64,000 nt of DNA from Oligoflexia bacterium (GTDB lineage Bacteria > Bdellovibrionota > UBA1018): the NCBI GenBank assembly GCA_903881565.1, contig CAIRTR010000232.1, positions 31,796-95,795 on the forward strand, written 5' to 3'. Numbering within the stretch: position 1 is the first letter of the stretch; each line of letters starts with the position of its first letter. Under the pieces are notes generated by a model. That model did no database searches and had not been told where the DNA came from. It was given only the letters and a program-made list of their open reading frames with translations. Below are positions 2,698-27,122 of this stretch, in pieces. The translations under genes were made by a program, and so were the position numbers.

Positions 2698-4287
2698 ATG
2701 GATCAAACTGGGACTCTTAAAAACCTCAAAATCTTGGTGGTCGGCGGGGCGGGGTACGTGGGAAGCGCCGCGTGTGCCTATCTCATCGATCAAGGCTGCA
2801 AAGTTTGGGTTTTAGACGATCTTTCCGAGGGCCACCGCGAACTACTGCTGGGCGAGGGATTTACCCACGCGCGCGCCGGTGATCGCTCAAAAGTATTACC
2901 CCTTCTCAAAGAAGGTAAGTTCGATTGCGTCATGCACTTTGCCGCCAAAGCGCTGGTCTCTGAGAGTGTTAAATACCCGGCGCGATATTTTGAAAACAAC
3001 GTCGATCAAACGCGCTCTCTTTTAGAGATGATGATCGAGACCGGAACGCGCAACTTCATTTTTTCGTCAACCTGTGCGACTTTTGGCGATCCAGGCGAGA
3101 CGCCCATGAATGAGGAGTGCCCACAAAACCCCATCAACCCGTATGGTCAGTCCAAACTTCAGGCCGAGGGGCTTTTGCGCGATTTTGCGGCCAGAAAAGG
3201 GCTGCGTGCGATTGCGCTTCGCTACTTCAATGCCGCAGGCGCCGAGCCGGGGTGTCGGGTCGGTGAATGGCATGATCCGGAGACGCATTTGATTCCGCGG
3301 ATTTTCAGAGCCGCTCATAAAAAGGGGGCGGTAGAAATTTTTGGGACGGACTACGCCACTCCTGATGGAACCTGCTTAAGGGATTATGTTCATATTTCGG
3401 ATTTAGCGGCGGCTCACACTGCAGCGATGTCACGAATTTTAGGCCGCGGACCTGAGTCACCGGGTTCCTTTGAAGCCTTTAATTTGGGTTCAGAGAACGG
3501 GTATTCAGTGAGAGACGTCATTCGAGCTTTTGAAGAAGTTTCAGGCCAAAAGATCGCAGTCATTGAGCGCCCACGTCGGGCGGGGGATCCTCCGAAGCTT
3601 GTTGCCCAATCGGCATTGGCTCGCCTGGAGTTGGGGTTTAAGATTACGGGAACTCAAACCGGTGACCCCACGGCGCCGTTGAAACACATTCTCTCCAGCG
3701 CTTGGGCATGGGAAACGAAGCGCCGAAGTACGATGAAGCGTGCGCTATTTATGGATCGTGACGGAACGGTTAACGTGGATCCTGGCTATTTGAATGATCC
3801 CAAACAAGTGGAACTCATCCCGGGTGTGCCTGCGGCGCTTGCGAAACTTCGGAAACTGGGTTTCGCGCTTGTCGTGATCTCCAATCAGTCCGGCGTCGGG
3901 CGCGGCTTAATCCGCGAAGAAGATGTTCCGGCGATTAACGCTCGTTTTGAGGCCCTTTTGGGTGGCCACGATGTTTCGATCGATCGCTACGCTTACTGCT
4001 ATCACATGCCTGCGGACGCGTGCGATTGCCGTAAACCCAATCCGACATTGATTTTAAAAAGTGCCCGCGAACTCGGAATCGACCTCACCCGCTCCTATAT
4101 GGTCGGCGACAAGCCGTGCGACTTGGAGGCCGGACGTGCGGCCGATTGTGGCGGCGTTGCTTTGGTGCGCACCGGTTACGGGCGCGAAACCGAAGCCGCA
4201 CTTAAACCCGGCGATACTGATTTTATCGGGGATTCTCTGCCTCAGGTGGTGGAATGGATTCTAGCCCGAGAAAACGCAAACTCTTGA
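2698..4287 (+). CDS. Bifunctional protein: N-terminal GalE-like UDP-sugar 4-epimerase (SDR) fused to C-terminal GmhB-like D,D-heptose 1,7-bisphosphate phosphatase (HAD)
   Basis: N-terminal domain has Rossmann motif VVGGAGYVGS, catalytic YGQSK, and LRYFNAAG, FGTDYATPDGTCLRDYVHISDLAAAH, PRRAGDPP as in GalE. C-terminal domain has HAD motif I FMDRDGTVN, ISNQSG, Zn-site CYHMPADACDCRKPNP and MVGDKPCD as in GmhB. The likely start is MDQTGTLKNLKILVVGG at 2698; the ORF-track start at 2650 is probably upstream read-through. Confidence 0.8.
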   Translation: MDQTGTLKNLKILVVGGAGYVGSAACAYLIDQGCKVWVLDDLSEGHRELLLGEGFTHARAGDRSKVLPLLKEGKFDCVMHFAAKALVSESVKYPARYFENNVDQTRSLLEMMIETGTRNFIFSSTCATFGDPGETPMNEECPQNPINPYGQSKLQAEGLLRDFAARKGLRAIALRYFNAAGAEPGCRVGEWHDPETHLIPRIFRAAHKKGAVEIFGTDYATPDGTCLRDYVHISDLAAAHTAAMSRILGRGPESPGSFEAFNLGSENGYSVRDVIRAFEEVSGQKIAVIERPRRAGDPPKLVAQSALARLELGFKITGTQTGDPTAPLKHILSSAWAWETKRRSTMKRALFMDRDGTVNVDPGYLNDPKQVELIPGVPAALAKLRKLGFALVVISNQSGVGRGLIREEDVPAINARFEALLGGHDVSIDRYAYCYHMPADACDCRKPNPTLILKSARELGIDLTRSYMVGDKPCDLEAGRAADCGGVALVRTGYGRETEAALKPGDTDFIGDSLPQVVEWILARENANS

Positions 4288-5059
4288 TCGGTTGTTGATC
4301 GAGGCGATCCATTCCGGGCAGATGGTAGGCCATAAGCCCGTACAAGAATCCGTAGAGTTGCTGATGATCCGCTTCTGAGGCGCGCATCGCTTGTGGCGCT
4401 TGGCGAATCGGCGTATTGAGTCCGATTAAAAAATCATGGATCGCCCAGAGGCTTAGGCTATTGGAATTTCCTGAGGCTTTATAGCCTTGTGTTCCACACT
4501 GCGGACAGAGCCACCCCGCCTGCGCAATTCGAAACAAGACTCGGTCCTCTTCTTTTAACTCGCTCAGCGCTTTGCCGCACTCCAAGCACGAATTCATGCG
4601 GGGCTGTGTGCCCCCCCAATGCAGCAATTTGATAAGAAATGCATTCAACACCCGCAGCCCCACTCCCTCACTCACGGCGTTTTCGTCTAAGAACGCGAGC
4701 GCATTGGAGAGGAGTTTGAAAAGATCCGTGCAGGGTTGATTCTTGGGAGCCGCGCGCAAGACCAATTCATTCATTGCGCTAGCAAAGGCCAGGCGCTCGA
4801 AGTCGGAACGGATTCCTTCAAAGGCGCGTCTCACGGTCGTATCCGTCAGGCGCAACAGTTCAGCGCCCGGTTTTTCGGTGAACACCCATTCGCTTGCAGT
4901 GAAAAGATCAAGCGAGCCCCCGAAGCGCCGCGACTGAATCGCATTTCTGGCAAGCGCTGAGACCACGCCGTGATGTTCGGTGAGGGCCGTAACGATTCGG
5001 TGCCGCTCTTCGAAAGCGACGGATCGTAGGACGAGGGCTAAGTCGCGCTGGGATTCCAT
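4223..5059 (-). CDS. recO: DNA repair protein RecO
   Basis: Starts MESQRDLALVLRSVAFEERHRIVTALTEHHG (OB-fold N-terminus) and carries the zinc motif CLECG...CPQCG. The ORF-track start at 5374 is upstream read-through; the internal ATG at 5059 fits RecO length (~279 aa). Its 3-prime end overlaps the convergent epimerase/phosphatase gene by about 65 nt. Confidence 0.75.
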   Translation of the reverse strand: MESQRDLALVLRSVAFEERHRIVTALTEHHGVVSALARNAIQSRRFGGSLDLFTASEWVFTEKPGAELLRLTDTTVRRAFEGIRSDFERLAFASAMNELVLRAAPKNQPCTDLFKLLSNALAFLDENAVSEGVGLRVLNAFLIKLLHWGGTQPRMNSCLECGKALSELKEEDRVLFRIAQAGWLCPQCGTQGYKASGNSNSLSLWAIHDFLIGLNTPIRQAPQAMRASEADHQQLYGFLYGLMAYHLPGMDRLDQQPIKSLRFLGLESIPPPEAENPR

Positions 5060-5226
5060 GAAAAGAGGTATAGCACAACCAAAAGGTGGTCCCCACCTTT
5101 TGGTTAAGATTTGCGTCAAATAGAGCCGAACAGCAACCTGTTCCACTCGCGATAAATGAGTGGAACTTGGCTCGATGTTTAGTTTATAGTTTTGCTGCTT
5201 ATGAGCCAAAAAGGGCGGCTGAAAAA

Positions 5227-5967
5227 ATGAAGAAACGCAAAATATTATTGAAGTTTGCTTTAATCCTTTGCGCTTTGACCCACGTTTCCATGCTGGAAAT
5301 TCATTTGAATGATATTTACGGAATCTTAGATCGCGAGGACTACCTGTTGATGGAGCAACAGAAACAGCCCGCACTCCATTCTGCTGCAGGAGAGAATTTG
5401 GCCTGGGAATCCTTTAACAGTTGGTCGTGCTTTCCGACAACGGAATTAGAAATTGATTGCCGTGATCAGGAGTCCGATCAAAGCTGGCACTCAATCAGTT
5501 CGGAAGAGCGTAATGGTAAAGGATACTATGCGGTCATTGACGTCAAACATGAAGGACATCAATATCGCTTTCAATCCCCTGGATGGATATTGGAAGAGAA
5601 TTGTCTGCAGCAAATTGAATCGACAATGAGACTGCTTGACGGACAAATTGGCTTTTGTATTTTTGCTGCCAAAATCCCCTCTGACGAAGAGTTGAACGGC
5701 ACTAACGACGAATCGGCTTCTTTGTGGGCGACTTATGGGATTAAGTCGCTGGCAGGACGCTTCAAACATCTAACGGAGCTCAAGCCTTGCTCTAGATGCA
5801 GGGTTGAGGTAGATTTTGGGCGTGGGGCTATAGCTCAGTTGGTAGAGCGTTGCATTCGCATTGCAAAGGCCGTCGGTTCGACCCCGATTAGCTCCACCAA
5901 ATCTAAGCCCGTTTCAAAGCTTTGGGCTGAATACGATCTTCTATTTCCCTGTCCACTATCTCAATAA
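5227..5967 (+). CDS. Hypothetical secreted protein; the open frame continues through the tRNA-Ala gene with no stop until 5967
   Basis: MKKRKILLKFALILCALTHVSM is signal-peptide-like and the body looks protein-like (GYYAVIDVKHEGHQYRFQSPGWILEEN). There is no in-frame stop before the tRNA at 5824, so the true 3-prime end is uncertain. Confidence 0.4.
   Translation: MKKRKILLKFALILCALTHVSMLEIHLNDIYGILDREDYLLMEQQKQPALHSAAGENLAWESFNSWSCFPTTELEIDCRDQESDQSWHSISSEERNGKGYYAVIDVKHEGHQYRFQSPGWILEENCLQQIESTMRLLDGQIGFCIFAAKIPSDEELNGTNDESASLWATYGIKSLAGRFKHLTELKPCSRCRVEVDFGRGAIAQLVERCIRIAKAVGSTPISSTKSKPVSKLWAEYDLLFPCPLSQ
5824..5896 (+). tRNA. tRNA-Ala (anticodon CGC)
   Basis: GGGGCTATAGCTCAGTTGGTAGAGCG...TTGCATTCGCATTGCAA...GGTTCGACCCCGATTAGCTCCA folds as a cloverleaf. 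The acceptor stem has the G3:U70 alanine identity pair, the anticodon loop is TT-CGC-AT, the T-loop is GGTTCGA, and an encoded CCA follows at 5897-5899. Confidence 0.85.
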
Positions 5968-7547: not shown

Positions 7548-9713
7548 TTATGGCGCGCCCTCTTTCCATTCGACCGCAGGATCAACCCTTCCGTCACGAA
7601 TCTTGATTCCACGCTTCTTGAGTTGCTCTAGGAACTCACCACTCGGTGGAGTCTGTCGAAACTCAAAGAGTTCAACGTCATCCAGGGTCACGGGGCCCCA
7701 ATACTGAAGCTCAACATATCCCCAGGTTGGCAGCGAGCGAAAATTCGCAAGTGATGTGCCATGGAAACCAAAGGAGGGATCCATCTCTTGGTTTGCTATC
7801 CCCCACCGGTAGAGGTCGTCCGACTTAAGTTTATCTATTTTCCTATTCCACGCCTTTTGCCTTTTCTTATGTGCGAGGTAAGGTTCAGAAGCTAAATAGA
7901 GCTTTTGCTTTGCTTTATAAGCAGCCACAAGAGAATTCCATTCTTTCTGCTTCTCTTCGAATTTTAAGTTATATTGTGCTTGTTTTATTTTGTATTCTTT
8001 CCAAGAGTCAGTTTGTTCTAACGCAGTTTGAAGCGCCATTTTTGCATCTTCAATTTTCTTAACATCCGCGACATAATTCAAATACTCGGGAGAGGCGAGG
8101 TAGGCAGTGTGCCTTCGCACATAATCTTCAAGAGCTGCTTGCGATTGACGCTGGTACTCGAGACAGGGCTCACTTTTCAGGAATTCATTTTGTTGCTCCT
8201 TATTAAGAGCGTCTATTCTCGCCGCCTCCACTTCGTAATCTTTTCGCTCTTTACTGTTCTTGTAGTTCAAGAGCGCCACATCAAAGCTCTCTCCGGTTTT
8301 GAGTACGGGCATGAGAGGTTGTTTCGGAAGAGGTAAAGGCGCTGGAGGGGTGGGCACGAAAATCCCCCCATTTACGGGTTCCGGAGGCTTTTTTGCGGGC
8401 GGCGGTAAACGACTCAAATCTATTGTAGGCTCAGTAAAATCCTTAACCAAATGAAAATAGGCAGGATAGGGTGGTGCAGGTGGAGCGATCGGCTCCTTAG
8501 GGACTTTCCCTGACAATCGAATGCGCTTTGTTCCAACCTCGAATCCCTCACGCGATGACTCTAGCGACTCAAGAAGATCGGGTGCAATCAGCAGCCGATT
8601 TTTCCAAGGAATAAAGAAGCCTTTCCAATTTGTTGGTTTTGCACCGGGCGATTCAGCAGCATACCCCTGCACCCCAAATGAGTCGCAAGGTGTCCAAGTG
8701 AGGCGATCTGTGACTCGATCGTTTTTGAAAACATAAGTATCTGGTCCATAACCATTAGCGGCATTAGCTTGTTTGATCCGGTTGCTCGGTTTGGGTTTTA
8801 GATAACCATAGACGGGCTTAAACTGGTCATCGCTTGCAGCATATTCCACACTATTTTGACCCGTGAGTTTCGCTTCGACTTGGTTTCGATATTCAGGCGA
8901 GAACATGCCCCTGGAGCTCCCCGTAGTTCTCTGATTCTGAAATCCAACTTTAGGAACCCACCAGCGCGCTCCCTCTGGGCGGTTCATCGCGAGCTCCACC
9001 TTTTCATTGGCTAAATTATCAGCAAGCTTTCCAGCTTGCGGACTATATTCATGCAGGGCTTTCCTGAGCGCTTCTGAATCCGAGAATCCAGAATCTGAAA
9101 AGAAGGGAACAAATCTTTCTTCTTGTTTCTTTAGCAACTCTTTAGCCTGTACGAGTAACCGCGGGAGTCTGCCGGACTTCGGTGGCATAATCCCCTTGAT
9201 TCGTAACCCTGGCGGGAGTTCGTGATTAAGTTCGGAGAGCAGAAGTTGATATTCCTGTTTAAGCTCGTATTCAGAAGGCAGGTAAGTCTTATGAGCGCCC
9301 TTCTCTTTTGGCATCTTAGCGACTTTTTGGAGTGCTTCTAACTCTGGAAACTCACTCAATGACTTTTGGATCGCGCGAAACGTCGCCCGCCACTCTTTGA
9401 TTTTGCCCGCATCGATCGCTGTTTTTTTCGACTCCTGAAGTGCCGTGATGATTCGCTCCAGGCGATCAAAATCATCCCATTTAGGTGTTCGTTCCCCACG
9501 AACAAGCTCAGGCTCGATCTCCTGCAAGCGATCAAAAGCGGGCGGGAGCTCTTCTGCGAGCGCTCGAAGTCGCTCTCGCAAAACACCAGCGCCGCAACCA
9601 TTTGCGAAGCTCGGTTGCGAGCTCAAGACAAAGCAAGCGCAGAGGCTGGCGAGGAGCCCGGCGGTGGCGAGCTTTGTTCTAAAGAGTGTCTGCAGACGCA
9701 TACCTAGACTCAT
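7548..9713 (-). CDS. Large secreted hypothetical protein (721 aa) with a proline-rich segment
   Basis: N-terminal signal peptide MSLGMRLQTLFRTKLATAGLLASLCACFVLSS. It has a Pro-rich linker PPAPPYPAYF...PPPAKKPPEPV...PPAPLPLPKQP and no catalytic motif that I recognise. Confidence 0.7.
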   Translation of the reverse strand: MSLGMRLQTLFRTKLATAGLLASLCACFVLSSQPSFANGCGAGVLRERLRALAEELPPAFDRLQEIEPELVRGERTPKWDDFDRLERIITALQESKKTAIDAGKIKEWRATFRAIQKSLSEFPELEALQKVAKMPKEKGAHKTYLPSEYELKQEYQLLLSELNHELPPGLRIKGIMPPKSGRLPRLLVQAKELLKKQEERFVPFFSDSGFSDSEALRKALHEYSPQAGKLADNLANEKVELAMNRPEGARWWVPKVGFQNQRTTGSSRGMFSPEYRNQVEAKLTGQNSVEYAASDDQFKPVYGYLKPKPSNRIKQANAANGYGPDTYVFKNDRVTDRLTWTPCDSFGVQGYAAESPGAKPTNWKGFFIPWKNRLLIAPDLLESLESSREGFEVGTKRIRLSGKVPKEPIAPPAPPYPAYFHLVKDFTEPTIDLSRLPPPAKKPPEPVNGGIFVPTPPAPLPLPKQPLMPVLKTGESFDVALLNYKNSKERKDYEVEAARIDALNKEQQNEFLKSEPCLEYQRQSQAALEDYVRRHTAYLASPEYLNYVADVKKIEDAKMALQTALEQTDSWKEYKIKQAQYNLKFEEKQKEWNSLVAAYKAKQKLYLASEPYLAHKKRQKAWNRKIDKLKSDDLYRWGIANQEMDPSFGFHGTSLANFRSLPTWGYVELQYWGPVTLDDVELFEFRQTPPSGEFLEQLKKRGIKIRDGRVDPAVEWKEGAP

Positions 9714-9769
9714 CGGTTATTATGGGGAATTTTTGAATTTTTGTGCTGTACCCAAAGCACCCCTCACGG

Positions 9770-9901
9770 TCACCTGAAGTAGTAGTCGACTAGATTCACT
9801 AGAAAAAACAGAACCCTAGATACGACGCAGAGAGTCCAGGGTTTCTGTTTAAGTTTTTCTAGTTCAATCCGACAAGAACAACAGCACTTGTTGTTTCTCA
9901 T
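9770..9901 (-). CDS. Candidate small Cys-rich ORF (43 aa), MRNNKCCCSCRIELEKLKQKPWTLCVVSRVLFFLVNLVDYYFR, in the leader of the 7548-9713 gene
   Basis: The reverse strand has a strong SD GAAAGGAGGTGATCC 6 nt upstream of ATG (complement of 9899-9901) and a TGA stop (complement of 9770-9772). It is below the 60-aa cutoff of the ORF track and could instead be part of a structured RNA leader. Confidence 0.3.
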   Translation of the reverse strand: MRNNKCCCSCRIELEKLKQKPWTLCVVSRVLFFLVNLVDYYFR

Positions 9902-10096
9902 AGGATCACCTCCTTTCTTTATTGGTAAGTCTAGTGCGACTAGATTTACCGTTGGAAGGAGGTAGTTCCTTCTACTCCGCTTGGTTTGGCGAGCACGACT
10001 TGAGCAAAAATGATGCCGAATGCGTGGCCTGTATCGATACAGGCGAATCGACCATTAGGTTACTTTAGTGCCTCCTTCTGATATAAGTTTTCCGCA

Positions 10097-11155
10097 ATGC
10101 TTCTCCCGCGAAAGCTTTTTCGACCCAGCTTTTTTCTTCTACTCAGTGGGATTTTAATTTTCCTATCAATCACCCTGCTTCATTCGCCCCATTTTTCGGA
10201 GGCACCGCAATCACTTGCCTTAGCGATAACGCTCGATCTCACTGCTACACTAACTGGCCTATTTTACTTTCTCCTCATCCGCCCCTATCGCTTGCATCCT
10301 AGTACGATGGCGCCTGTCTTTGCTTTTGGCATCCTCTCTGCTCACTTACTCATCCCTAAAGAATTTGGCGACGGGATGAAATCAATTCAGGCGCTTGCCG
10401 CGTGCTTTGAATTCGGAATAACCGGATTTATCCTTTATAATTTGAAAAATGTGATCAAGGACCATCGCCAGCTGGTGGCCTCTGGCTTTGAATTCTCACA
10501 AGCCCTACGCAAAGCCCTCGCGAGATTTGTTCCCAACGCTTGGATTGCGAGTCTGATTTCAACTGAGGTCTCGCTTTTACGATATGGACTTTTCACCTGG
10601 TCGAAGACTCTTCCCGAAACTGACAGCAAAGAAGCGTTTTCCCACTGGAAAAACAGTGGATGGTCGGGTGTTCTGATCGGCTTCATTCTTATGATTGTCT
10701 TCGAAGGTGTTGCGTTTCATTTTCTACTGGCCCACTGGGGCACGTGGTTAATCGTGATCCATCACCTACTTTCCGCTTACTCCATCCTCTGGTTACTAGG
10801 TGATTATCAAGCGATTCGCCACCATCCGATCCAGATTACTGCGCCTGAAATTCGCGTTCAAATTGGGTTTCGTTGGTCGATCATAATTCCCACGAAGGCG
10901 ATCACTAAGATCGAATTGCGGGGTTCGCCAGAGGTCCTCACGGAGGTGCGCCGCGACGGCTTTATCAAAGTGCAGAAGGTGCCCGGTTACAAATCTTTTA
11001 CAGTCTTTGGCGAGCCTGAATTGCAAATCACGCTTCGGCACCCCGTGGTCGCCCACGGATTGTTCGGAGTATCCCAACAAGTTACCATGATAGGCTTAGC
11101 TCCGGACGATTGCAGGATTTTTAAGGAGCGAGTGGAAACCTTGGCTCAACTTTAA
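10097..11155 (+). CDS. Polytopic inner-membrane protein, hypothetical
   Basis: 352 aa with several hydrophobic helices (LLLSGILIFLSITLL, GLFYFLLI, VFAFGILSAHLLI, VLIGFILMIVFEGVAFHFLLA). There is no SD before the first ATG. Confidence 0.65.
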   Translation: MLLPRKLFRPSFFLLLSGILIFLSITLLHSPHFSEAPQSLALAITLDLTATLTGLFYFLLIRPYRLHPSTMAPVFAFGILSAHLLIPKEFGDGMKSIQALAACFEFGITGFILYNLKNVIKDHRQLVASGFEFSQALRKALARFVPNAWIASLISTEVSLLRYGLFTWSKTLPETDSKEAFSHWKNSGWSGVLIGFILMIVFEGVAFHFLLAHWGTWLIVIHHLLSAYSILWLLGDYQAIRHHPIQITAPEIRVQIGFRWSIIIPTKAITKIELRGSPEVLTEVRRDGFIKVQKVPGYKSFTVFGEPELQITLRHPVVAHGLFGVSQQVTMIGLAPDDCRIFKERVETLAQL

Positions 11156-11392: not shown

Positions 11393-11740
11393 TTAGTAAC
11401 GACCGCGTCCACCGCCGCCGCCGAAGCCGCCGCGTCCACCGCCGCCGCCGAAGCCGCCACGTCCACCGCCGCCGCCGCCGCCTTCACGAGGAACCATAGG
11501 CTTCGCTTCGTTCACGGTCATAGCGCGACCGTCGAAGTCCTGGCCGTTAAATTTGTTGATCGCATTAGCAGCTTCAGCGTCGGTCGACATTTCGACGAAC
11601 CCGAAACCTTTGCTGCGGCCGCTGTCGCGGTCCATGATGATCTTTGCGGATTCAACCGTCCCGCATTGCGAGAAAGTATCCATCAAAGTTTGATCGTTTG
11701 CGGAGAATGGCAGATTGCCGACATATAACTTCTTACCCAT
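11393..11740 (-). CDS. RRM-type RNA-binding protein with C-terminal glycine-rich (RGG/GGF) tail
   Basis: MGKKLYVGNLPFSAND (RNP2) and KGFGFVEM (RNP1), followed by the tail GGGGGGGRGGFGGGGGRGGFGGGGGRGRY. Confidence 0.9.
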   Translation of the reverse strand: MGKKLYVGNLPFSANDQTLMDTFSQCGTVESAKIIMDRDSGRSKGFGFVEMSTDAEAANAINKFNGQDFDGRAMTVNEAKPMVPREGGGGGGGRGGFGGGGGRGGFGGGGGRGRY

Positions 11741-14827: not shown

Positions 14828-15889
14828 CTATTTATGCTTTTTCTTGGTCTTAGAACCAACTTGGCCACCGGATTTTCGAGGCTTCAATTGTTTAAGGCGC
14901 GAAACGGCCGCTTCAAAGTCTTCTTCCACAAAACTTTTTTCATCGATTGCGACTGATCGATATTTTTCGAATTCTTGTTCAGCTTTTGCAAGAGCGAATT
15001 CATGACTAATCTTGCCGGTGTGAGAAAGGATTTCGCGATCACTTAATCGTAAGAACTCGTCAAGCCTGATAATCCAATCCTTCATGTACATCGGGCGACG
15101 CCCCTTCGCCTGAAGCTCCGCTAATTCGAGATAGGCACTGACAATACGATTGAGAGCATCCAGCTCCTCTTTTTCAAGGAAATTCTTCGCAACTGCAACA
15201 TCCGACTTCTTGGGCTTGTGACCTGTCCATGATGTGAGACCAATATTTGGCTTTGTTGCATCTACGCGCTTAACGATAACTTCCGCAGCGGTATTTCCAT
15301 GTGCTGCCCAATGCATTTTGTTTTGAAGGGTCGCAAAGAAACGTTGAGACAAGTCAGCACTTGGGTCGTAATCCACGCTTGTGGCGTAAATATCCAATAC
15401 CTTCCGCCAAAACATTTTTTCAGAAGATCTAATGTCTCGGATACGGGCTAGCAGTTCGTCAAAATAGTCAGCCCCAAGAGGTGACCCGCTTTTCAGGCGT
15501 TCATCATCGATGACAAAGCCTTTAACGAGAAGTTCCTTGAGTTGCGCAGATGCCCAGTTTCTGAACTGAGCCCCACGATTGGAGCGGACCCGGTAGCCAA
15601 CGGCTAGAATTGTATCAAGATTGTAATGATCTACTAGCCGTTCCACAGCCCTTGACGCCTCTTGTTGAACTATCCGGAATTTCCGGATAGTTGCCTCAGG
15701 ACTTAGTTCCTCTTCACGATAGATGTTTTGAATGTGCTCATTGATTGTTTTAACAGAGACTTGAAATAGATCTGCCATGAGTCGCTGAGTTAGCCATACC
15801 GTATGGTCTTCAAAGCGCACCTGGATTTTGGTTTGACCCTCATCGCTTTGAAATAATATGATTTCGCCGTGGAGTTTAACGGTTGTCAT
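14828..15889 (-). CDS. RhuM-family protein (virulence-associated, Fic/Doc-related)
   Basis: KIQVRFEDHTVWLTQRLMADLFQVSVKTINEHIQNIYREEEL...YNLDTILAVGYRVRSNRGAQFRNWAS matches the conserved RhuM N-terminal block. Confidence 0.75.
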   Translation of the reverse strand: MTTVKLHGEIILFQSDEGQTKIQVRFEDHTVWLTQRLMADLFQVSVKTINEHIQNIYREEELSPEATIRKFRIVQQEASRAVERLVDHYNLDTILAVGYRVRSNRGAQFRNWASAQLKELLVKGFVIDDERLKSGSPLGADYFDELLARIRDIRSSEKMFWRKVLDIYATSVDYDPSADLSQRFFATLQNKMHWAAHGNTAAEVIVKRVDATKPNIGLTSWTGHKPKKSDVAVAKNFLEKEELDALNRIVSAYLELAELQAKGRRPMYMKDWIIRLDEFLRLSDREILSHTGKISHEFALAKAEQEFEKYRSVAIDEKSFVEEDFEAAVSRLKQLKPRKSGGQVGSKTKKKHK

Positions 15890-27087: not shown

Positions 27088-27122
27088 AAAGCAGGGTACT
27101 TCGGTACCCTGCTTTTTTTTTG
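27088..27122. terminator. Bidirectional rho-independent terminator between csp and the convergent aldehyde dehydrogenase gene
   Basis: GCAGGGTAC-ttcg-GTACCCTGC followed by a T9 run, with an A-rich tract on the other side. Confidence 0.8.

Follow-up and report, generated by a model that had tools for sequence, protein, structure and literature searches.

A 3'-shortened copy of a conserved small-peptide RNA module in an Oligoflexia bacterium, a candidate type I toxin-like sense/antisense unit

The stretch of DNA analysed here, called the window throughout, comprises 64,000 nucleotides (nt) of an Oligoflexia bacterium (GenBank assembly GCA_903881565.1, contig CAIRTR010000232.1), and the region under study, 9714-10096, lies between two divergent genes: a minus-strand gene for a secreted protein of 721 residues (7548-9713) and a gene for a 352-residue membrane protein, an orphan with one distant match. 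The initial annotation had described this region as a structured leader or a small cysteine-rich peptide gene rather than a plain promoter, and all the motifs that it listed are found where it placed them; a second metagenome contig (L001) is identical to the window across the region. Sequence comparison shows the minus-strand segment 9741-10017 to be a copy, shortened at its 3' end, of a conserved module of 260-310 nt that had not been described before, and establishes conservation of an open reading frame (ORF), a coding signature and covarying RNA helices. The region is more than a plain promoter, holding both a conserved peptide gene and a covarying RNA structure. With confidence that stands about evenly balanced, the segment is interpreted as a copy of a conserved autonomous module of type-I-toxin-like character, in which a sense RNA for a small membrane peptide would be opposed by an antisense RNA.

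The central feature of the module is an ORF on the minus strand (9901-9770) encoding the 43-residue peptide MRNNKCCCSCRIELEKLKQKPWTLCVVSRVLFFLVNLVDYYFR, which has a single predicted helix and a hydrophobic C-terminal half. Upstream of it lies an extended Shine-Dalgarno (SD) sequence, GAAAGGAGGTGATCC (9917-9903, minus), which occurs in a single copy within the 64 kilobases (kb) and whose plus-strand reading is the exact 3'-tail sequence of 16S ribosomal RNA, GGATCACCTCCTTTC. Of about 56 ORFs in the window, none has a longer SD; the next best match spans 8 nt, and 4-mer cores are typical. Its GGAGG core is separated from the ATG at 9901 by 7 nt, or by 6 nt when counted from GGAGGT, in agreement with the perfect SD 6 nt before an ATG reported in the initial annotation.

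A word-indexed protein search with the peptide returned only the self-match, and an exhaustive phmmer search of 1.84 billion representative sequences recovered six homologues of 41-67 residues with 49-67% identity and E-values from 1e-9 to 3e-4. A metagenome pattern scan, filtered with a hidden Markov model of the peptide, added further copies, bringing the total to 12 DNA copies in 11 loci (referred to below by L numbers). Six of the 12 came from a pattern that forces GGAGGTGAT and GAAAAACTT, and for these two motifs conservation is judged from the copies that the protein search recovered (window, L015, L016a, L017 and L018, together with L016b, which lies beside L016a). The ORF is intact in every one of the 12 copies, every insertion or deletion is a multiple of three, and the positions of start and stop are conserved. 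In the hydrophobic half, codon position 2 stays T while positions 1 and 3 vary (NTN periodicity), and synonymous sites are frozen at GAA AAA CTT and CGG. The family peptides are 41-47 residues long and follow the consensus M-(K/R)-N-x3-(C/Y)-x2-x-R-I-x-LEKLKQKTW-x-L-x-VLARVLxFLxxLV-x-(Y/C)-L-R. On this comparative evidence the 43-codon micro-ORF noticed in the initial annotation is a genuine conserved small-peptide gene, with its related copies, in-frame indels and NTN periodicity, and the proposal that its peptide be sought in other genomes is answered by the six protein homologues and the 12 DNA copies. Cysteine-richness, which formed part of the same proposal, is not a family trait: the CCCSC motif is confined to the window copy, its place being taken elsewhere by YYIH, CYS, YFKY or YLTY, with cysteine alternating with tyrosine, histidine and phenylalanine.

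Structurally, AlphaFold2 models the peptide as one continuous helix from residue 3 to residue 42, with a mean confidence (predicted local distance difference test) of 79 overall and 87-93 in the hydrophobic half, and hydropathy peaks at 1.69 over residues 24-42. The product is accordingly predicted by modelling to be a membrane peptide with a single transmembrane helix. Profile searches with seven members gave no consistent Pfam or NCBIfam match at E-values up to 1, only isolated matches at chance level, and neither the peptide nor the RNA matches a curated Pfam, NCBIfam or Rfam family. One of the protein database entries, P0020 (67 residues), is extended by 24 residues through translation of the 5' untranslated region (UTR), including the anti-SD and the SD, an error of annotation to which other members of the family could also be subject.

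The RNA specified by the minus strand is strongly structured. Folding of the leader in silico, a check suggested in the initial annotation, gives -116.8 kcal/mol for the 363-nt RNA against -89.9 +/- 5.9 kcal/mol for shuffled sequences (z -4.56), and none of 100 shuffles is as stable. A common architecture emerges from the alignment of copies, from RNAalifold and from independent single-sequence folds of L016b (z -4.4) and L046 (z -6.1). The RNAalifold consensus contains 42 pairs with 93.7% of alignment cells paired, and compensatory changes occur at 10 pairs against 4.9 in shuffles (equalled in 1/500), or at 2-4 with slid partners; the covariation score reaches 0.239, where shuffles give 0.146 (0/500).

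The outermost element of this architecture is a closing stem, P1, of at least 10 base pairs (bp). Its 5' strand, GCCAAACCAAGC (9990-9979, minus), stands at the predicted transcription start (about 9992-9990), and in full-length copies GCCAAAC at the 5' end has its pairing partner in GGTTTGGT / GCTTGGTTTGGT at the 3' end. Compensatory changes affect 4 of 10 P1 pairs, 98.9% of cells are paired, and the exceptions are all G-U, which argues for selection on the sense RNA rather than on inverted repeats in the DNA. Inside P1, a small 5' hairpin, GTAG-AAGGAA-CTAC (9975-9954, minus), has arms that covary by eye (GTAT/ATAC, GGTG/CACC) and a 3' arm that runs into the anti-SD CTACCTCCTTCC (9965-9954, minus), within which ACCTCC is invariant in the family.

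The anti-SD engages the SD in a helix of 8-10 bp, represented by 8 alignment pairs with 96% of cells paired. The SD core of 10 nt, AGGAGGTGAT, is invariant in all 12 copies, and the hairpin of the window copy has a predicted stability of -26.5 kcal/mol (z -4.5). The sequestration of the SD proposed in the initial annotation is supported by a predicted helix kept in every family member, with one compensatory change in L018 (CCUCCA:UGGAGG). A further suggestion, that the helix acts as a thermosensor, fares poorly, since the stem is perfect, G+C-rich and 8-10 bp long within a hairpin of -26.5 kcal/mol; RNA thermometers of the ROSE, fourU and similar classes, whose SD sits in a weak helix with mismatches that melts at physiological temperatures, are unlikely on this ground, and the helix has no Rfam match. 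Rfam searches at gathering and E-value thresholds, run on the window and on L015-L018, yielded no relevant family; within the region, the strongest match below threshold has an E-value of 0.52.

The start codon itself is enclosed in a second hairpin (9872-9901, minus), in which the AUG and the N-terminal codons pair with UGC UGU UGU UCU UGU, the codons of CCCSC. In the window copy this run forms the 3' arm that pairs with AGAAACAACA (z -2.0), so the apparent cysteine-rich motif arises because UGY codons build the arm that buries the AUG. Such a hairpin is predicted in 12/12 copies from differing sequences and includes the AUG in 10/12; in L046 and L083 it starts immediately after the AUG. Correspondingly, the codon before the invariant arginine is N[A/G]U, complementary to AUG, in 11/12 copies (CUU in L015). 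Further downstream, a long hairpin lies within the ORF (9798-9863, minus), with an outer stem ACUAGAAAAA/UUUUUCUAGU and a U-run after the inner stem. It has a predicted stability of -26.6 kcal/mol (z -5.6), shows compensatory changes at 4 pairs and codes for LEKLKQK...VLFFLV. A repeat search shows perfect pairing of its outer arms, ACTAGAAAAA/TTTTTCTAGT, and the imperfect hairpin noted initially at 9809-9848, with arms from 9809 and 9836, is present as the inner core of this longer structure. A last hairpin occupies the 3' UTR around GGGTACAGC; an ATG in its loop was considered as the start of a second mini-ORF and rejected, the ATG not being conserved.

The two palindromes that the initial annotation had read as paired operator sites both exist, and their setting does not support that function. 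TCTAGT-gcg-ACTAGA (9930-9944) is part of the apical extension of the SD hairpin (9924-9950, minus), and it is not an operator because this tip is variable or absent in the other copies, being of other sequence in L016a, similar in L016b and reduced to a short loop in L046, L102, L083, L068 and L015. The perfect palindrome TAGTCGACTA (9783-9792, on neither strand in particular) lies inside the codons L-V-D-Y, which are not conserved in any other copy, and is specific to this lineage. Their shared core GACTAGATT occurs at 9788 and 9938, a spacing of 150 bp, within a 13-nt direct repeat with one mismatch. This repeat, CGACTAGATT(C/T)AC (9787-9799 and 9937-9949), connects codons close to the 3' end of the ORF with the SD hairpin's tip; it is absent from the other copies, has a chance expectation of about 0.04 and could provide an alternative RNA pairing. 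The window has 3.4-fold fewer CTAGs than expected (74 against 249), and seven CTAGs within 9704-9940 make up its densest CTAG cluster. Two of these, in CTAGAAAAA and TTTTTCTAG, are conserved in the family; the others are private to the window copy.

Upstream of P1, the conserved alignment columns are reduced to GG and TTGC, and these coincide with a putative sigma54-type promoter (10017-10003, minus), composed of the -24 element GGCAT (10017-10013), the stretch catttT and the -12 element TGCT (TTGCT, 10007-10003), arranged as GG-N10-GC. Sigma54 promoters carry GG at -24 and GC at -12 at exact spacing (TGGCAC-N5-TTGCW). Among the 11 copies with upstream sequence, 10 have the exact GG-N10-GC with invariant TTGC, and one has AG. 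The distance from the -12 GC to the first nucleotide of P1 is 12-13 nt, placing the predicted start 1-2 nt before P1 (about 9991 in the window). The sense RNA would thus be driven by a sigma54-type promoter. At a distance of 3 kb from the L018 copy is a gene for a sigma54 activator, and Bdellovibrio bacteriovorus encodes both FliA and RpoN (PMC3464611). A scan of 9300-10500 with sigma70 and terminator consensus sequences gave no promoter and one irrelevant terminator, with a loop limit that misses the hairpin in the ORF.

On the opposite strand, codons 11-21 of the ORF contain a putative FliA (sigma28)-type promoter, TTAAG-N15-CCGACA (9849-9874, plus). The arrangement TTAAG (TCAAG in L016)-N15-CCGANN recurs in 12/12 copies, with a perfect CCGATA in L018, L046 and L102; the consensus of attack-phase FliA promoters in B. 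bacteriovorus is TTAAG-N16-CCGATA (PMC3627812). The candidate antisense RNA would start near 9882 and proceed across the start codon, the SD and the anti-SD towards about 9990. It would contain the 16S-tail sequence, and its predicted fold has -39.9 kcal/mol. A loose scan for the FliA motif gives 55 matches per 64 kb, so a single match carries little weight.

The module recurs in settings that share little with the window. Ten other copies sit in unrelated contexts, and the downstream neighbour is convergent in seven loci. Where the downstream gene lies on the same strand, in L015 and L083, it is unrelated to the 721-residue protein, and the gene upstream of the L016 copies is likewise outside that family. 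These unrelated contexts and the frequent convergent neighbour indicate an autonomous unit rather than a leader, one that by its sequence is taken to have its own promoter and its own 3' end. In L017 the copy is located between dnaJ and an SMC-like gene, and both flanks of L024 and the upstream flank of L022 resemble those of L017; the shared dnaJ-element-SMC-like site suggests vertical inheritance. The L016 locus carries two tandem copies (3909-4205 and 4527-4825) at a spacing of about 620 bp. Two residues distinguish the one peptide from the other, the SD hairpins end in different tips, and the upstream promoter region has been duplicated with the copies. The tetranucleotide profile of L016 correlates with that of the window at r 0.94, within the range of 0.91-0.95 seen among 8-kb pieces of the window itself, and the two contigs have the same G+C content and come from the same samples. 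L016 and the window are therefore probably parts of one genome, in which case that genome would have three copies or more. Within the 64-kb window the module is single-copy by nhmmer, and blastn of the window and the homologue loci gave no further copy. Eight pattern matches in viral contigs were examined and are not family members; the hosts of the module are probably Bdellovibrionota.

The window copy differs from the others at its 3' end. In the nhmmer alignment it covers model positions 1-227 of 264, and homology stops at 9741, after GGGTACAGCA. The remnant of the 3' UTR (9741-9769, minus) retains GTGAGGGG (9767-9760) and GGGTACAGCA (9753-9744). The hairpin of the 3' UTR has lost its 3' arm and P1 its 3' strand, and a FliA-like promoter of the downstream gene directly takes their place. 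At the corresponding locus of a sister species (L002), which encodes an orthologue 61% identical to the 721-residue protein, a complete element with its 3' parts is kept upstream of that gene. The window copy may be an unlocked variant, a decaying copy or a source of read-through into the downstream gene.

The downstream gene appears to be equipped with signals of its own. Gene callers and the conserved promoter geometry both place the start of the 721-codon frame at the ATG at 9701, giving a product of 717 residues. The gap that the initial annotation gave as 57 nt is indeed short, measuring 56 nt from the end of the small ORF to the 721-codon start and 68 nt to the ATG at 9701. The putative promoter of the 717-codon gene (9737-9699, minus) consists of TTCAA (9737-9733), a spacer of 16 nt and CCGATG (9716-9711), followed after 9 nt by the ATG at 9701, and resembles the attack-phase FliA consensus TTAAG-N16-CCGATA of B. 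bacteriovorus (PMC3627812). In 7/7 homologues (window, L002, L003, three in L004, L010), [CT]CGA[TA] stands 8-10 nt upstream of the start with no SD, and in the six closest (window, L002, L003 and the three of L004) a TTcAa-like pentamer is recognised by eye 16 nt further upstream; the upstream genes differ in every one of the seven. Since the loose FliA scan is nonspecific, the argument for a separate promoter rests on this conserved geometry. It points to a FliA-like promoter for the 717-codon gene and to a messenger RNA that is probably leaderless or nearly so, and it suggests that the closest members of the family are expressed as leaderless attack-phase messengers. Many secreted and surface proteins of B. 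bacteriovorus are under FliA control (PMC3627812), as is proposed here for the 717-codon gene, and attack-phase FliA promoters of that species are also described elsewhere (PMC12622784).

Homologues of the 721-residue protein occur in metagenome-assembled genomes of Bdellovibrionota alone (Oligoflexia, Bdellovibrionales, Halobacteriovoraceae and Bacteriovoracaceae), apart from one bin labelled Verrucomicrobia, a distribution that would by itself make the window organism a probable uncultured Bdellovibrionota member. No Pfam domain was found in the protein, and no shared synteny was seen among the homologues, the one sister species excepted, for which the comparison covered 157 nt of upstream sequence. 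Members of this secreted family have a proline-rich linker and often stand in tandem arrays of three paralogues (L004, L006). A DUF4423 gene lies beside such an array in L006 (2954-3760) and again near the tandem modules of L016 (1441-2337), which may be a coincidence or a recurrent neighbourhood.

Several other features surround the module. Between the divergent genes, a perfect 18-bp palindrome, GCCTGTATCGATACAGGC (10027-10044), absent from the initial annotation, has its centre 18 nt before the -24 GG. It belongs to a set of about 10 perfect palindromes in the window with arms of at least 8 nt, was not found upstream of other family members, and is a possible regulator site for the divergent promoters. 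At a distance of 1.4 kb, a gene with a strong SD (AGGAGGT) encodes a 115-residue RNA-binding protein with an RRM domain (11393-11740, minus). A tRNA gene (5824-5896, plus) is the sole Rfam match in the window. Long perfect palindromes with arms of 12-13 nt are located at 5077-5105, 15668-15692 and 27088-27115 (for example AACCAAAAGGTGG-TCC-CCACCTTTTGGTT) and are probably bidirectional intergenic terminators.

Taken together, the conserved elements outline a mechanism of the type I kind. Transcription from the sigma54-type promoter would start the sense RNA at about 9991, and in full-length copies this would be an RNA of 260-310 nt, closed by the 5'-3' stem and encoding a membrane peptide of 41-47 residues with a single helix. 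The very long SD would be locked by the upstream anti-SD and the AUG buried in the second hairpin, a double lock that would leave the primary transcript translationally inert. From codons 11-21, the FliA-type promoter would yield an RNA with full complementarity to the sense RNA over its 5' end, the SD and the start codon. Such an antisense RNA could prevent the sense RNA from being translated or lead to its degradation, and transcription of the antisense strand could also interfere with the sigma54 promoter. The window copy appears to retain the promoters, the SD lock, the ORF and the antisense promoter. In this arrangement the hallmarks of type I systems are matched by a small hydrophobic single-helix peptide, a doubly locked start with a closing stem, a candidate internal antisense promoter directed across the translation start and several diverged copies; toxicity of the peptide is surmised.

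The closest parallels are found in aapA/IsoA of Helicobacter pylori and in hok, both of which produce an inert primary transcript held by anti-SD hairpins and a 5'-3' long-distance interaction, and in both of which loss of the 3' end turns the inert transcript active (PMC6733600). Like aapA/IsoA, the module encodes a small hydrophobic peptide, is predicted to combine anti-SD hairpins with a 5'-3' interaction, displays compensatory changes in its helices, has a predicted antisense RNA over the translation start, and exists in several chromosomal copies; a 3'-shortened form lacking the long-distance lock has its counterpart, at the genomic level, in the window copy. Unlike aapA/IsoA, with which it shares no sequence similarity, the module holds its SD through a local upstream anti-SD that lies outside the 5'-3' stem, and its predicted promoters are of sigma54 type for the sense RNA and sigma28 type for the antisense RNA. 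The hok/sok system of plasmid R1 and E. coli chromosomes is similar in its structured messenger of about 300-400 nt, in the pairing of the hok 5' end (tac) with the 3' end (fbi), in the block on translation until the hok RNA is processed, and in an antisense promoter within the 5' part of the toxin transcript; it differs in using the coupled frame mok and sigma70 promoters, and the module peptide has no match to the Pfam family Hok_Gef.

Resemblances to other systems are more partial. As in the par locus of Enterococcus faecalis pAD1 (fst/RNA II), a small membrane peptide is combined with a translation-limiting 5' hairpin and with a hairpin flanked by A- and U-runs, possibly bidirectional; however, the par RNAs converge on a common terminator, whereas the A/U-flanked hairpin of the module lies inside the ORF, upstream of the antisense promoter. 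Sigma54-dependent RNA genes such as Qrr, GlmY/GlmZ, CrcZ and Myxococcus Pxr are likewise short, structured, stand-alone units behind a -24/-12 promoter, but those RNAs are non-coding and have conserved activator sites, whereas the module conserves a strong SD and its ORF, and a search upstream of its copies gave no common site. The antisense motif resembles the FliA attack-phase promoters of B. bacteriovorus (TTAAG-N15/16-CCGATA), with a spacer of 15, not 16, and three attack-phase small RNAs of that species are reported to have FliA promoters (PMC3627812). Two broader classes were considered and set aside: leader-peptide or upstream-ORF attenuators, for which the position upstream of one gene is not fixed and the cysteine codon run is not conserved, and repeats resembling miniature inverted-repeat transposable elements or repetitive extragenic palindromes, in view of the strand-specific G-U exceptions, the coding signature and the single copy in 64 kb. 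In the literature searched, no paper connects type I toxin-antitoxin systems with Bdellovibrio, and nothing relevant was found on sigma54 with type I toxins or on Bdellovibrio with RpoN and antisense RNA.

Several observations weigh against the interpretation as a type-I-toxin-like module. The promoters, the antisense RNA and the toxicity are all read from sequence. The antisense spacer measures 15 nt, in place of the 16 nt of the published consensus, and the LEKLK and arginine codons, like the RNA hairpins, place constraints of their own on the antisense motif, so that its conservation is not independent evidence for a promoter. No terminator was found for the predicted antisense RNA, no activator-binding site or repeat upstream of the -24 element is shared across copies, and Pfam and NCBIfam profiles of known type I toxin families (Hok/Gef, Ldr, TisB, Ibs, ShoB, Fst, TxpA/Bsr and others) gave no match. 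Finally, the window copy lacks its 3' part and is possibly decaying. A different account, doubtful though worth serious weight, makes the module a gene for a non-toxic small membrane protein, such as a regulatory peptide or one involved in stress, under the sigma54-type promoter, with an mRNA structure that serves stability or translational control and a FliA-like motif that is incidental. Such a gene would have the same ORF, SD lock and sense promoter; each nucleotide of the antisense motif could be explained by the LEKLK and arginine codons and the hairpins, the missing antisense terminator would follow naturally, and vertical conservation at the dnaJ-adjacent site is what a housekeeping function would produce. 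Against an incidental motif stands a correctly spaced 9-nt match to the dominant alternative promoter of the lineage, for which chance is estimated here at about 0.5% per 300-bp element, its position and orientation being precisely those at which type I antitoxins begin; tandem or multiple divergent copies per genome and a doubly locked start would also be unusual for an ordinary small protein.

The remaining explanations find less room in the data. That the effector is the RNA itself, a sigma54-dependent structured small RNA or dual-function RNA with an ORF that is translated marginally or not at all, is improbable. Sigma54-dependent regulatory RNAs are well known in other bacteria (Qrr, GlmY, CrcZ, Pxr), and the extensive covarying structure, the frozen synonymous sites at GAA AAA CTT and CGG and the burial of both SD and AUG would suit one; the in-frame indels, the NTN periodicity where nucleotides vary freely, and the retention of start, stop and the invariant 10-nt SD core across 49-67% amino-acid identity speak against this account. 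A cis-regulatory leader of the 721/717-codon gene, whether as an upstream ORF or cysteine-sensing attenuator, a riboregulator, a thermosensor or a pair of palindromic operators, is quite improbable. This proposal, inherited from the initial annotation, draws on the ORF lying on the same strand and ending 56-68 nt upstream of the gene, on the complete element upstream of the 61%-identical orthologue in the sister species, on the attenuator-like U-run after the inner ORF hairpin, and on the lost 3' end of the window copy, which makes sigma54-driven read-through into the 717-codon gene conceivable in this genome. It is contradicted by the ten copies in unrelated contexts, seven of them with a convergent downstream gene, by the unrelated same-strand genes behind L015 and L083, by the lack of conservation of the cysteine run and the palindromes, by the promoter-like element that the 717-residue family has 8-10 nt from its ATG with or without the module, and by an SD helix too stable for a thermometer and without an Rfam cis-regulatory match. 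Barely plausible is a feature acting at the DNA level, such as a mobile element of the miniature inverted-repeat kind or a series of palindromes bound by proteins, having neither RNA nor peptide function. Its ends are indeed inverted repeats (GCCAAACC...GGTTTGG), it occurs in several copies in varied contexts including a tandem pair, and CTAG-rich palindromes cluster in the window copy; yet the mismatches of the terminal repeats are all G-U on the sense strand, indicating selection at the RNA level, a coding signature is present, the 64 kb hold one copy and viral contigs none, the location is stable across related contigs, and the window palindromes are not conserved.

With the type-I-toxin-like module as the preferred interpretation, a broader and more tentative proposal is that it represents the first type I toxin-antitoxin-like family of the predatory Bdellovibrionota, with its two partners under different sigma factors, the peptide messenger under sigma54 (and an activator) and the antisense RNA under the attack-phase sigma28, FliA. 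For annotation the module is a recognisable unit, mostly overlooked or wrongly extended by gene callers, and it exhibits overlapping constraints in which the same nucleotides encode the peptide, hide the SD and AUG in hairpins and spell out the putative antisense promoter. If the promoters are real, it would offer a compact and testable case of sense/antisense control split between sigma54 and sigma28. The switch from attack to growth in Bdellovibrionota is still poorly understood; if the proposal is true, the peptide could be made only once the cell has left the attack phase or if overruled by a sigma54 signal, and the module would function as a life-cycle or stress switch rather than as an addiction module.

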